63,996 nt of DNA, filler included, from Porpidia crustulata (GCA_964255105.1; 13 parts of 13 records of this genome joined end to end with filler, not necessarily neighbours in it); one strand, 5' to 3'. Positions 33,775-39,373 are shown, numbered from the whole stretch's first letter. The notes: a model not told the origin generated them from the letters alone. Made by a program: numbers and translations.

Positions 33775-35521
33775 TACATCTATCTCCCCGAATCTTTGTT
33801 CACACCAAAATGTGGCAAGCAGTTGCACATCATCCCAGGCATTTTCTATTGTCGCTAGTGCGGTCTCTTCCAGATTTCTGTGAATGAAATGACTCTTCCC
33901 GCTTTGCTGTTCATTTCTACTGGTTTTATTCAAAGATCACTTTCAGGCTGGCCATCCCTGATTAGCACATTATTGATGGTCAATACCGCAATCGATGGCT
34001 CAAATCCATCGATTTGGCGGCGGTTCAGCAGTCTCAGATCGCTCTCAACAAGGTGCCCCTTGGTCGTGGAGATTCACTCCAATGTACGCAGAGTGTGGGG
34101 AGTATTCGGATTACTGTTCATATCACTTCACACCAAGCGGTGAGCCTGCAGTGAGGAATTACCGGATTAGCGTTCCTCACGTATCCCCATTTCATCTCTT
34201 GCGTGTCCTTTGGACTTACTGTCACTCCCACCTTATTACATACACAGAGCTTCAATACAGGGCTTCTTATTATTGAGCTTTTGCAACTTCGCTGGTACTA
34301 CCATTGACTTTGTTTTCCTTCCATATTTTTATTTAATACGCTCCATTTTTGCGCCACCAGGCACTTTCTTGCACGAATCAGCCATGCTCTTGGATCTACC
34401 TTTGGGATTTCAGTACCAGCTTTACTCTATTTCTCAGCATCTTGCGATCTCCGGTAAAGCTAGCACTAATCCACGCCTACCAATATATTATGTATAGTCA
34501 TCCGCCTTATCAAAACTGGTCTCAAAATCATAACTACGGTAAGTTGGTCNNNNNNNNNNNNNNNNNNNNNNNNNNNNNNNNNNNNNNNNNNNNTTAATTA
34601 ATTAANNNNNNNNNNNNNNNNNNNNNNNNNNNNNNNNNNNNNNNNNNNNAGATGGGAGTTTGCGAGAGGAACGATGGGGACTGCACGGGGTTTGGTAGAT
34701 GAGGTAGAGGGATTCGAGGGTTGGGATTCTGAATTTATGGAGGATAAATTTTTTTATATGATTTTAAGGCAGTTTTCCGTATTTTGTTTAGCTTTCTTAT
34801 ATCTTTTATCAATCCTAGAAGTAATAGCTACAATTAACACCTAGCCTTATTTATTTATTTTTTGCAAGCGGTTTAGCGTCGAGTACCAAAGCCGGCGTGT
34901 CTAGATTGCCGGTTGTGGTGAGTCGTAAGGAATGGGAGAGAATTGACGTTTCCGGGATATTGGGAGAAACTGTGGCTTGTTGCTGAGACTTGTATGTTTG
35001 TTGAATGGATAGATGAATAAATGAACATTATACGAACGACTCTAATGGCATGCAGAAACTATAACGATACAACGAAAAGCGTGAGGATGTGTGAAACTAG
35101 GTCTCGAGATTGTATTTGGCCAGTCTGTTGTGTTGCAAGCGGGCCATAAGGTCTGAATAGGATAAGGGTTGGATACATAGGATAAAGCTAGAGGTAGATC
35201 CTAATTGCATAAGTCTTTTGACTTGAAGTTGTGCTACGAAGAAGGTGGATCGGAGCTGTTGCGCTGTCGAGATCGGGTTTGTTGTACGTGGCAGCTGTAG
35301 GGAGATCTTGAATAGAGGTAGTGGATGTCGCAGGGGCAGGGTGCCTGTGGCTAGGAAACTCAGGCATTTGAGATTTGGATGAGGGGCGCAATGTCATGTT
35401 GTGGCGAACTCCTGAGATGGCCATTATTGGATGCGGTGGTGTTGATAAACCTGAGGTAATAGGATAGAGTAAAGGAAAGAATAGTGAAATACATGAAAGT
35501 GTTAGAAGGCTTTACATTCAC

Positions 35522-35882
35522 AACGAGTAGCCCCGTTTTTCGTTGAGCGCGACTGCTCGAAAAAAGAATAGGTTTGTAGATAAAATGACAAAAGAGTTCC
35601 CACCCTCCCCCCACAGGGGAGGGTGGTAATCTTTGTCTGTAGTTAGTAGAGCCTCCGATTGCCCCGTGCTCAAGGGGTTCTGTGTCGAAATTCGAACTAG
35701 AGCCACCTTCTCGATAAAGGTGGATGGTGCCAGCCGGGCTCGAACCAGAGCCACCCTGAAATAGGTGGATGTGTCGAGCCCGCGCTGTATTGAGACAGAG
35801 CCACCCCCGATTGGGATGGTTGCTTCTGGCCGGTAAACCCGGCACCCTTAACTGGCTGCCGGGTTGGAACGGGAATAACGTT
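35522..35882. ncRNA. Candidate structured RNA (or DNA hairpin array) of unknown class
   Basis: Perfect stems: 35600-35610/35616-35626 (11 bp), 35703-35709/35717-35723 (7 bp), 35735-35743/35774-35782 (9 bp, enclosing CCACC/GGTGG), 35836-35844/35857-35865 (9 bp). Closing helices 35729-35733/35826-35830 and 35532-35537/35868-35873. AGAGCCACC occurs three times. Confidence 0.5.
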
Positions 35883-36907
35883 CTTATTATGGTATATATT
35901 TTTGAAATGATTGATAATCGAAATGAAGAAGGCACAGAATCGGAAACGCCTTTCAGAGGAGAGATACCCGCCACATTGTAATAATGAGGGAGCTTTTCGT
36001 ACTCAAATATTCCTCCAGAGGCTTATGTGGAACTTGATCATTACACCGACCTCTGGAACACCTACTTTTTGCTCTCGACATTGAGAACTTAGATACGGTC
36101 ACACCTTCCAATGATGGAATTACTCCTACTTTTCTTAAAGCAATTCGAGGCATGACTGCAATCTAGATAGCTAGCATTCAGTCAGCTTATCTTGCGTCGG
36201 ACCGATGATACCCCAACCTCCCCGATGGTTTGAATAGCTGGACATGCGTGATAATTCAATCAATATGTCGATATCGCCAAGCCGCGTACTCGATACTTCG
36301 CTGTTTGACAGTCTTAGAGGATCTTCGGATAGCTTCAATTGTTCGACCTGCACGTGACTCCGTGATTGCTCCTCCTAACTTTTTACAAGATTTTTAATCC
36401 AATAAGGGCCCCTTCCACAAGGCAGGAGGGCTAGCACATGGTCTTGGGAATTCTTTGCAGCACCTGATACTGCGATTGGCTACCTGGGTTAAAGTATGGC
36501 CGAGCTTTTCCCAATCGATTCCATCCAAATACTCTTCCCTGGGCAAGGGCTACCAAAGTCGAACTATTCCTTTTCAGTGATTATATGGTCATTGCGCTAG
36601 GCTTTTTTCGTCTTTAAATTGATCAAAAATCTCCAAAGTTTCGCCACCCAGTTCATGTTGCAGTACTTGAGACTTGGAGATTCTGCAGAAAACAAGTCTT
36701 TCATATTCAGCATATTCCAAGAAATAAAGTTTCATCCAATAGTCACATAAGTTGTACCTTCTTCCCCAACTTTGTCAATATTAATTCCACTCTCATAGCC
36801 GGTCGATCCTTCTAGGTCTCGCAAAAGTTCCACCGAAACCTTCATCAAGTATGTATACTGCGTATTCACTAGCGATAGATCTATCCTAACGGAAAGAAGA
36901 CAGCATC

Positions 36908-37417
36908 ATGTTCTTTATCAAAAACTCTGGATTCAAGAACTTGGCTTTCGTCCAACCAGACGACATAGTCGTGAGTATCGAGGACCCAGCCAATTACACC
37001 AGGAATGGAGGTACGGCCATTGTTAAGTTCGAGGATGAGGGAACCCCACAGCCGGAAGCCACAGACCAAGTGGTCAAAAGGGAGGTGGAGGAAGCGAAGA
37101 ACAGTCCGAAGCCAAAGTCCGAACGAGTTTCAGCTGGCCGGGTGGACAAGAGGTCAGACCGCAGAGCCGTCTCCAGAAGTCTGGGCGGGAACGACGGACA
37201 GCTTCAGGATAGCCGGCCTGGAGAAAAGACAGGCATAAAACTCAAATTTGGAAAGAAGAAGGAAGTTGCCCGCCCCCAGATCATCAACTGTCGATATAGC
37301 GGCCCGGGCAATTATACCACGTACCATTACAAGGGTAAAACGTACTTTTGTCCAGAGGGAAAACGGCCATGGGTCGACAAGGCGGATTTGGAGGACTGTG
37401 TGGTGAGCCTTATCTAG
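36908..37417 (+). CDS. Hypothetical protein, probably the last exon of a spliced gene
   Basis: 169-codon ORF preceded by an intron-like segment (GTATGT about 36849, CCTAAC branch, CAG about 36903); Lys/Arg-rich middle and a three-Cys C-terminus. Confidence 0.55.
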   Translation: MFFIKNSGFKNLAFVQPDDIVVSIEDPANYTRNGGTAIVKFEDEGTPQPEATDQVVKREVEEAKNSPKPKSERVSAGRVDKRSDRRAVSRSLGGNDGQLQDSRPGEKTGIKLKFGKKKEVARPQIINCRYSGPGNYTTYHYKGKTYFCPEGKRPWVDKADLEDCVVSLI

Positions 37418-39373
37418 CGAAGAGATAGGTAGCTGGTCGTCTATGTGGAAGACTGGTCGATTGGGTTGATAGGATGATTTTGGAAGCAAGCCTCTTTTAT
37501 TGTTTTTCTTATTGTATATTGTCGTATATATTAATTAACTCTTGATACGTTGCAAGCTTACTCTCATCCGACTTACAGTAGTGCAATTAGCTCTCTGGAT
37601 GGTCAGTCCATTGAGAACCAAATTGATATGAGGTGAGGGAGAAATGGACGATCTTCCACTCGGTCGATTCAGCCTCATGCAATCTCGGAACTTAGCGCTT
37701 ACTCAAATTTAACGACCGCATATCGCGACTTCCATGTCGGCCTTTTCATCAGACAATTGGACATTCCTCACATGAATAGCTAAACATTTCAAAGATCCTA
37801 AGGTACCTGGATGTTTCGAGTGATCACATGCTGAGCGGATTCACTTTCATGGTGCGCCAGTTCGCTCGCTTCCTGGATTGATTCTAGTTGACTTCTGCAG
37901 GCTCGGCATCTTCATCAGTACTATATAGTGGATCAGTGCGTCCTGACAAAGTGCGAAATATATACAAGCTACCCCTTCATCATCGTTTCTCTGCTTTATT
38001 GATTTGTAGCAGATAATACGTAGATGATACGTACGTGAGATGGACTACGCACAGCGTTTCACTTGGTTCTTTCTTAAGCCCACGCGATCTCGAAATCCAC
38101 ATCTACAATTTCTACATCGTTTCATGCTCAACAGTCTGTTTCATCTTGCGCCCCTGCTTCTCACCTTTCGACCTCTCATCCAAGCAGCAGTTCTACCCGC
38201 CTGAGCCTTGAGCAAAGGTCATGCTACGAGTGAATGCAGTCTCATTGTCAAGGATGAGCTCTGTAATTCCGGACAGTATCAGGCACAGACTCTCGGCTCC
38301 AAGCTCCTGACCTCGATTCAAATCTATTAAAATTCCAAAAACCAAATCGGATACAACAAAATCCTAAGGACCACTGACTGCACCAAGGCTGATTGGTGTG
38401 AATAGCCAATTTCTCTAGGCTGCCATGTTTATCATGATCTTTAACTTAATACCTGGCACCACGTATACTCATGTTTATTCTCTTATTACGGCGATTCGTG
38501 ACGGCCAACAGACTCATCAAGATGTGCACGGTACTCTCTGACCTTCATTGCGGATTAGGCGGGCAGGTTTACTGCTGGCGGCGTCTACTGCAGAAGATGC
38601 TGCGGCTCATCATCAGCACCATCACCGATGACTAAGTCTTTTTCCATGTCCCTTCCCACTCCTGATTGAGATGGAAGTTGTGGTAGGCAATGCATATGGG
38701 CACGGGCGAGTTGTACACCAAGAATATTTTGGTCATATTTACTGGGAATCCTGTAATAGATAGTACTTTTAGATAATCCTAACTGCGTGAGACATAGATA
38801 CTCTACGTGTACATCATAGTCATGACCTACTTGTATATCAAATCGGGTTTCTACGTCGTGGACCTCCTAGCTTTAAATACGAGGATTGAAATGATAACAA
38901 CACCGTACTCTTCTATGTTTGTCTCGCCAGATTGAGTCCGGGATGATTCAGCATTTAAAATAATCATATAAGAATTTACATGTGAAAAGCGTGCGGTACC
39001 GTTCCGAACCGCCCGCCATGACAATTTCAGCCGTCAGCATTTCAACATGATTATGAATAAAAGTCTCTTCTCTTCCCAAAACACAAATCAATTATATATC
39101 GATACATTGAATTACTTCATTACACCCTTATAGACTATGTAAATAAGTATTGGCGACTTGGAAACCCCGAAGACCAGTAGAACCGAGACTGCTGCGACTT
39201 TTCCTTCCGATACCGAGTTCCGATACCGAGTCCCGTTGTCGATATAGAAGAATCGCATATCTAGAATAGAGAAACTGTTTGCTTGAATCTACTAATATAT
39301 TGATTATTTGAGTTACTGTCGACTACATTAGACCTGCTCAACGACGCACCCGCAGGTGGGCTTAGTTGCGCAT

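Follow-up and report, generated by a model that had tools for sequence, protein, structure and literature searches.

A Row of Repeated Hairpins in Porpidia crustulata That May Be an Undescribed RNA Gene

Introduction

To our knowledge, the repertoire of RNA polymerase III (Pol III) products in filamentous ascomycetes is short: tRNA, 5S, U6, SRP, and RNase P RNAs, a few microRNA-like RNAs (milRNAs), and SINEs. A TATA element combined with a B box is the layout of the yeast U6/SCR1 kind. The Pol III milRNA genes of Neurospora use TATA-like elements and T runs (PMC3547838, in excerpt). The features of fungal SRP RNA include a long helix 5, a 5′ Alu domain containing UGUNR, and a helix 8 whose symmetric loop has A-C and G-G/A (PMC4605306, in excerpt); RNase MRP RNA has the motif gaaAGuCCCC with acnnnanGGGGCUna (PMC1796607, in excerpt).

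A preliminary description of DNA from Porpidia crustulata proposed that one segment encodes a structured noncoding RNA with repeated modules and no known family. We followed up that proposal computationally. The lack of a family and the modules stood, whereas the strand and the ends need revising. As judged from its sequence, the element may be an undescribed RNA gene.

Results

Location of the element

The window (the whole stretch of DNA analyzed, 63,996 nt) consists of 13 contigs of the P. crustulata assembly, each ~4.8 kb, arranged in falling size order and joined by N-TTAATTAATTAA-N linkers. Because the joining is artificial, only the contig at 34650–39482 (G000:C1986) provides true context for the hairpin element, and neighborhoods across all 12 gaps are meaningless; an adjacency of the element to UTP25 was dropped for this reason. 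The closest named homologues of this genome's UTP25, with 62–67% identity, are those of lichen-forming ascomycetes, and other relatives reach 75–84%. The assembly is fragmented and incomplete, with 22.9 Mb in 2447 contigs. The tetranucleotide profile of the element's contig was no outlier (rank 16 among 93 pieces), and one of three sequencing runs contains the stretch and may be its source. In a comparison of contigs at 80%, that run gave 2 pieces free of differences, one contig covering the element without a break. For the remaining two runs, which belong to the same study, the outcome was in one case a single 36-nt piece (6 differences, flanks unrelated), which we judged to be a chance match, and in the other case none.

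Pfam and homolog searches of the neighboring frames revealed no recognizable gene adjoining the element on its contig, the only Pfam match being one at E 0.015; the earlier suggestion of a structured leader is therefore weak. The frame at 36890–37417 (plus strand) is an orphan of 169–175 codons with coding-like codon usage (+13.6 bits) and only itself as a homolog. The frame at 35188–35511 has a single marginal match of a low-complexity type (E 8e-4), and the minus strand from 36000 to 36900 contains broken frames of 50–69 codons that resemble a decayed gene and have no Pfam hits. Identity of the element as an rDNA 5′-ETS was dropped, because an Rfam scan of the window showed no 18S following it on the contig.

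Secondary structure

Folding energies of the region were compared with those of shuffled controls for both strands, giving z-scores of −6.67 (plus) and −6.77 (minus), with 0/100 shuffles equally stable. On the contig, 120-nt windows with z < −2.9 started only at 35530–35730, and the signal was limited to about 35530–35880. The predicted 311-nt minus-strand unit described below had a z of −7.5 (0/100 shuffles) and an MFE structure identical at 15, 25, and 37 C. Its fold lay 6.4 SD past a composition regression on same-genome DNA, with 1 of 1199 windows equally extreme; the top outliers among those background windows contained long inverted repeats, not rows of hairpins. Folded as DNA the unit scored equally well (z −8.2), so that folding alone is no proof of RNA. 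Elsewhere in the genome, the strongly folding windows L214:2970–3281, L183:1–311, and L211:6600–6911 have a hairpin that terminates in CCCTAACCCTAG or something very similar; these hairpins, which recall the 3′ end of a Helitron and include a telomere-like word, are probably one dispersed repeat family.

The hairpins are real. All of the stems listed in the preliminary description were found in place: CCACCCTCCCC at 35600 with GGGGAGGGTGG at 35616, GACAAA at 35587 with TTTGTC at 35632, CCACCTT at 35703 with AAGGTGG at 35717, CGGGCTCGA at 35735 with TCGAGCCCG at 35774, and AACCCGGCA at 35836 with TGCCGGGTT at 35857. Its recurring module was found in part. The sequence AGAGCCACC occurs at 35699, 35747, and 35797, and AGAG occurs also at 35593 and 35648, but the third module has GGGATGG instead of GG(T)GG and thus a C-A mismatch on the plus strand. 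The GC-rich island exists but is mild, with a GC content of 0.52 (core 0.57) versus 0.46 and 0.44 in the flanks. A multibranch junction closed by GCCAG/CTGGC is improbable because CAGC/GCTG pairing wins, leaving it a pairing probability of at most 0.003 on the plus strand and 0.035 on the minus strand. Pairing between the ends of the segment (35522–35537 with 35868–35882), also proposed earlier, was at chance level against 2000 shuffles (p 0.12 for the minus strand, 0.51 for the plus strand), and when 3264 pairs of real segments from the genome were examined, 36% paired as well as these ends.

When the flanks are included in the minus-strand fold, that same end helix has a probability of 0.5–0.95, which speaks for a reading in which the element is part of a Pol II transcript and the end helix closes a domain of ~361 nt lying in an intron or UTR or in a coding exon. 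In the intron version, the intron would end at the CAG at 35451–35453. Sequence reading and a motif scan of the minus strand from 35506 to 35451 identified a CTAAC (35506–35501), an AG-free pyrimidine tract, and that CAG (35453–35451), the CTAAC and tract starting 16 nt after 35522; an intron 3′ end, or a CT-rich core promoter of a downstream transcript, is possible there. The distance of ~48 nt from branch site to AG, however, is long for an ascomycete intron. For the exon version, a 220-codon stop-free minus-strand frame extends over the element (35363–36022), a length reached by just 0.9% of 2000 block shuffles; against it are a codon score of −17.5 bits (the 8 training genes all scored above 0), the lack of a homolog, and a sole Met near the end of the frame, which is probably noncoding. 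The chance level of the end pairing and the lack of C/D boxes and of correctly placed H/ACA boxes also argue against the Pol II reading, which we regard as improbable. An H/ACA snoRNA (hairpin-H-hairpin-ACA spacing) or C/D snoRNA (terminal boxes C and D) as such was rejected because the positions of the motifs disagree with the predicted folds and for want of an Rfam match.

Strand and promoter signals

The evidence favors the minus strand as the likely RNA, opposite to the plus-strand reading made initially. Four plus-strand C-A mismatches, located at inner or internal positions of the helices designated M1, B, C, and D below, are U-G pairs on the minus strand; one G-U favors the plus strand (the outer pair of D), and in the lower stem of M1 each strand is favored once. 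The minus-strand ensemble is also tighter, with a mean base-pair distance of 50 versus 78 (37.5 for the 311-nt unit). The shuffle z-scores are practically equal for the two strands.

The minus strand contains Pol III-type signals. The TATA block AAAAATATATA (35893–35903) is the sole match to AAAAAN{0,1}TATATA in the window (0.09 expected), with 0 in 400 kb of background, and GGTTCGAGCCC (35736–35746) is the sole match to the B-box consensus GGTTCGANYCC in the window (0.30 expected), with 1 in 400 kb of background. Minus-strand runs of five or more Ts occur on the contig at 38341, 36924, 36629, and 35565; only the last of these is a T6 (35560–35565), and it is the first such run past the TATA block and the predicted terminator. 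The TATA block, B box, and T6 run share one strand, follow the correct order, and enclose exactly the region that folds: the first hairpin begins 33 nt past the block's first T, and the final hairpin stops 21 nt ahead of the T run.

A strict combination of TATATA, the 11-nt B box, and a first T≥5 run at 150–450 nt, defined after this locus had been viewed, occurred once in the window, at the element, and 0 times in 40 × 10 kb of same-genome DNA; with a loose B box there were 3 matches in the window and 6 (at 3 sites) in the 400-kb background. None of five A-box patterns matched near the predicted start, the sole match being at +118. TATA-rich blocks are found at similar distances elsewhere in the genome: a U6 copy has AAAAAGTATATAA (TATATAA) at −30, and a tRNA-Glu gene has such a block ~20–40 nt upstream. 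The U6 copy used for this calibration may be a pseudogene. Because of that possibility, the post hoc criteria, and the missing A box, the Pol III signals constitute good circumstantial evidence only.

Together with the G-U pairs, these signals indicate that the unit lies on the minus strand, is ~305 nt long, and lacks a closing helix. From the TATA position, the B box, and the first T≥5 run, the predicted transcript of ~305–310 nt would span 35562–35870, starting between 35870 and 35865, ~28–33 nt past the TATA block, and ending within the T6 run. The segment 35522–35537, one of the two ends paired in the preliminary description, falls outside it. The computed fold is a row of six hairpins. 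The first structure past the predicted start is a 5′ hairpin, E (35836–35865), of 9 bp + 2 bp with pair probabilities of 0.97–1.0. It is followed by module D (35794–35823), a 7-bp stem CCAUCCC/GGGGUGG with one U-G and then CUCU, and by a long arm (35731–35787) composed of CAGC/GCUG and a CGGGCUCGA/UCGAGCCCG stem (probabilities 0.91–0.99). Within the arm lies module C, CAU-CCACCU-loop-GGGUGG-CUC, with a 3×3 internal loop. The B-box match, at +125, is inside the arm stem and would thus act as DNA. Module B (35696–35728) has an 8-bp stem, CCACCUUU/GAAGGUGG, with one U-G and then CUCUAGUUCGA. The region from 35648 to 35701, in which repeat families D1, D7, D8, and D10 are located, is predicted to form a weak UCGA hairpin and a degenerate module A ending in GGAGGCUCU, with an inner CCCC/GGGG hairpin (probabilities 0.6–0.88). 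The 3′ long hairpin, M1 (35587–35637), combines a 12-bp upper stem, one pair of which is U-G, with AGA/UCU and GACAA/UUGUC; with about 20 bp in all, it has a pre-miRNA-like shape.

Internal repeats

The body of the element is made of ~50-nt units. A 16-nt repeat family occurs three times, at spacings of 48 and 50 nt, with partial copies at 35647–35661, and four ~50-nt units end in G(T/A)GGCTCT, which indicates tandem duplication. On the minus strand, units B, C, and D have the form CA(U/A)-CCA(C/U)C-loop-GGUGG-CUCU, unit A being the degenerate one. The CUC loop is predicted to be open only in module C (unpaired ~1.0) and is partly paired in B and D. In a comparison of units B, C, and D, 20/21 cells pair and 2/7 pairs are changed on both sides, a result attained by 105/500 shuffles and drawn from paralogous units only. 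These numbers do not bear out the earlier claim of selection on structure; the units suggest, at that strength, selection on the module. In the window, a model of units B–D matched these three alone, and a search of 418 kb of same-genome loci with it gave no match below E 0.5; because 418 kb is less than 2% of the assembly, the latter null carries no weight. A single-module pattern had 6 matches in the genome, 2 of them inside the element, and 4 in the control.

The clear duplication of the units (the 16-nt family in three copies) bears on the main rival explanation, which is that the element is a decayed relic of a mobile element (a dead SINE-like copy or the end of a transposon) or that a single palindromic unit was duplicated neutrally in tandem. 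Copying, not selection, would then have produced the hairpins, and the Pol III-like signals would be leftovers or chance. The nonsignificant covariation of the modules and a stretch after the B box that reads like a tRNA 3′ half are consistent with this, as are the frequent absence of repeats from fragmented assemblies like the present one and the observation that fungal SINEs can exist in few copies, their boxes degenerate and their duplications eroded (PMC5063351, in excerpt). Several observations argue against it, however. The element was found as one copy in the assembly with no second copy up to E 10, a count that is a lower bound for a fragmented assembly, and it has no RIP signature. 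Its predicted ends have neither a target-site duplication nor inverted termini, the best direct repeat being one of 7 nt located ~55 nt outside both; the B box is at +125 with no tRNA-like head, and ARAGORN finds nothing. An upstream TATA at −30, present here, is not carried by retroposed copies. The SINE-like option of the preliminary description is weakened by the single copy, the lack of an A box, and the lack of a target-site duplication at the predicted ends, and we rate the relic explanation as a whole as unlikely.

Known RNA families

In agreement with the preliminary description, no Rfam family matched at gathering score anywhere in the window. On the element region, searches up to E 10 gave 6 and 9 weak matches, all miRNA-type hairpins far under the cut-off. 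M1 gives the sole Rfam signals, and their miRNA shape is one point in favor of a Pol III-made microRNA-like precursor, in which the ~20-bp M1 would be processed by Dicer or Argonaute to a discrete small RNA of 19–25 nt, by analogy with Neurospora milR-1 to milR-4. Two others are the TATA-like element and T run, which match those of the Neurospora milR genes (PMC3547838, in excerpt), and a Dicer gene fragment in the assembly (Pfam Dicer_dimer). The Rfam scores are only 18–27 bits, however, compared to cut-offs of 88–100, the M1 stem is short and GC-rich, and the repeated modules are left unexplained; we consider this precursor quite improbable.

The preliminary description had noted no hallmarks of U3, SRP RNA, a telomerase template, or a hammerhead, and box C, helix 8, TAACCC/GGGTTA, and CUGANGA are all absent from the element. 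U3, U6, RNase MRP, and telomerase RNAs sit elsewhere in the genome. U3 snoRNA (RF01846; boxes A, C′, B, C, D) was rejected for lack of box C, the true U3 being on contig C1177 (157.5 bits), and RNase MRP RNA (RF00030) for lack of the 5′ P4 strand, the true MRP RNA being on C372 (99.8 bits). Ascomycete telomerase RNA (RF02462; template, CR4/5) was rejected for lack of the template sequence; its CR4/5 match is on C561. A hammerhead and the HDV and twister ribozymes had no Rfam match up to E 10, the cores of the last two being compared by eye with the consensus. By-eye comparison with consensus sequences also led us to drop a group I intron P7-like GACAA/UUGUC, an Sm site, snR30 m1/m2, a Helitron end, and a tRNA with an intron.

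The genes located in the course of these searches have features of their own. A spliceosomal intron of 66 nt interrupts the U3 gene (L169:1434–1781; G000:C1177) past nt 13. The RNase MRP RNA (L145:1344–1852; G000:C372) is 509 nt long, with a large specificity-domain expansion and an extra hairpin in P3. At the telomerase RNA locus (L146; G000:C561; minus strand), a template-like stretch, CTTAACCCTAAG, lies ~1.3 kb upstream of the CR4/5 match. There is a full-length U6 copy at L170:196–295 (minus strand; G000:C1171) and a 5′-truncated one at L171:155–216 (minus strand; C1103). Both end in an A run, not oligo-T, and have ~60 further downstream bases in common, and no normally terminated U6 turned up in this genome; the copies may form a family headed by U6, either a chimeric repeat or pseudogenes.

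SRP RNA (RF01502) and nuclear RNase P RNA (RF00009) had no match in the assembly and were therefore raised as candidates for the element, which would be a highly diverged form of one of them. The element has the right size and promoter type, and noncanonical fungal SRP RNAs have been overlooked before (PMC4605306, in excerpt). Motif searches of the genome for the two RNAs gave 24, 3, and 2 matches, which is the control level, and yielded no other candidate; the 2 matches of one search include the MRP gene itself, and 20 of the matched loci gave 0 hits when scanned with Rfam. Against the SRP identity, neither strand of the element has the helix-8 pattern, UGUNR near the 5′ end, or the long 5′-3′ helix, and the reported helix-8 changes are limited to Basidiomycota (PMC4605306, in excerpt). 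Of the features of RNase P RNA (a P4 pseudoknot of CR-I and CR-V, P1 closure, and an MRP-like P3), no P4 or CR-I motif was found on either strand, and neither model scored on the element up to E 10. Because the assembly is incomplete and the RF01502 and RF00009 searches matched 0/14 control genomes, the absence of the two RNAs elsewhere means little; absent contigs or divergence may explain it. We regard either identity as extremely improbable.

Beyond this genome, a strict pattern had 0 matches in prokaryote genomes, and viral contigs gave 18 and 56 single-motif matches, none extending. A two-module pattern found at least 119 metagenome stretches; among the matches listed, all were chance, coding, or REP-like, there was no nhmmer match, and the pattern was too loose to address fungal relatives. 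The REP-like sequences (L026, L027, L034, and ~25 other metagenome loci) are GC-rich bacterial tandem palindromes, GTAGAGCCACCCCATGGGTGGCT, presumably from Stenotrophomonas. They share AGAGCCACC with the element and differ in the stem, and we judged the likeness to be a coincidence.

Complementarity to U3 snoRNA

The repeated GUGGCUCU would pair with U3: an 11-nt segment of module C (35744–35754, minus strand) is perfectly complementary to nt 57–67 of U3 from the same genome, a match noticed post hoc. These U3 nucleotides form the 3′ strand of helix 1b′ and the start of the 3′ hinge. Modules D and B have perfect complementarity of 9 and 8 nt, respectively, and the plus-strand motif AGAGCCAC is identical to U3 nt 60–67 (11 nt in unit C). 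The element might therefore be an antisense partner of U3, with this segment mimicking the 5′-ETS site to titrate or chaperone U3; in yeast, U3 nt 62–72 pair with 5′-ETS 281–291 (PMC3239212, in excerpt). The 8-mer is present in the Rfam fungal U3 consensus, the probability of finding a random genomic 8-mer in the 5′ 80 nt of U3, on either strand, is 0.003 (0.011 for all of U3), and the element ranks top among 970 windows for 8-mer complements (7 and 9; runner-up 6). However, the match was noticed among four RNAs compared, and RNase MRP RNA and the telomerase region gave single matches of similar length (10 and 11 nt). The three matches to U3 have one duplicated origin and are not independent, by whole-duplex energy the element is only at rank 109 among 970, and its own stems enclose GGUGG. 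Moreover, the match is mostly on the linker, which is reported to be unneeded for Mpp10 binding (PMC3239212, in excerpt). A role as a U3 partner thus seems very improbable to us.

The boldest form of this proposal, to which we give an equally small chance, would be a new fungal Pol III RNA family whose tandem hairpin modules are antisense, in their repeated strand, to the conserved U3 hinge and which, as a multivalent 5′-ETS mimic, holds U3. If this were true, U3, and hence ribosome synthesis, would be kept in check, for example in dormant or desiccated lichen; functional complementarity would make the element an RNA regulator of a core ribosome-assembly RNA. A narrow literature search returned no such case.

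Discussion

We consider it fairly probable that the element is a Pol III RNA of some kind. The more specific reading that explains it best, an orphan minus-strand Pol III RNA presenting repeated protein-binding hairpins, we place at about even chances. According to this model, the element would be a stand-alone, lineage-restricted Pol III gene. TBP would bind the TATA block (35903–35893) and TFIIIC the internal B box at +125; Pol III would start at ~35870–35865 and stop in the T6 run (35565–35560) to produce an RNA of ~305 nt, which is computed to fold into the hairpin row without a closing helix. The body would have been born by tandem duplication of a ~50-nt unit, as the observed repeats suggest, and three to four units retain a CCACC-type stem next to which G(U/A)GGCUCU stands as the 3′ strand. 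These units would display one small surface several times over, so that multiple molecules of a single protein would be bound by the RNA, which would serve as a scaffold or sponge.

If the model is correct, a 300-nt orphan with repeated modules would represent a new small-RNA family caught while forming by tandem duplication of a hairpin unit. As a relic, in contrast, the element would be ordinary. The Pol III model yields sharp predictions for the strand, both ends, the size, and the repeated motif.

The fungal genes with a TATA element and a B box (U6, RF00026, and the yeast SCR1 type) are like the element in having a TATA at ~−30, a B-box match, and an oligo-T end. U6 and SRP RNA differ from it in that neither matches it in sequence or structure; the element has no A-box match, and its body consists of duplicated hairpin units. 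The tRNA-related fungal SINEs, such as AfuSINE2, resemble it in size (140–493 bp, a range that includes the element), B box, low copy number, and T run, whereas the element is single-copy, has no end duplication and no tRNA-like head with A and B boxes, and has a TATA at −30 (PMC5063351, in excerpt). Among the excerpts of the literature examined, no described fungal motif resembles it, the candidates of PMC8216456 and PMC5640933 being compared by their descriptions. The conserved structural RNAs proposed for fungi by Gao et al. (PMC8216456, in excerpt) and Li and Breaker (PMC5640933, in excerpt) are likewise intergenic, single-copy, and structured. In Table 1 of the former, intergenic structures average 92–144 nt, and just one, an H/ACA RNA of Saccharomycotina with 343 nt, comes close to the element in size. 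The Neurospora crassa milR-1 to milR-4 genes (PMC3547838, in excerpt) are alike in having a Pol III-type unit with a TATA-like element, a T run, and a hairpin; compared to them, the element is longer and contains six hairpins and a repeated module.
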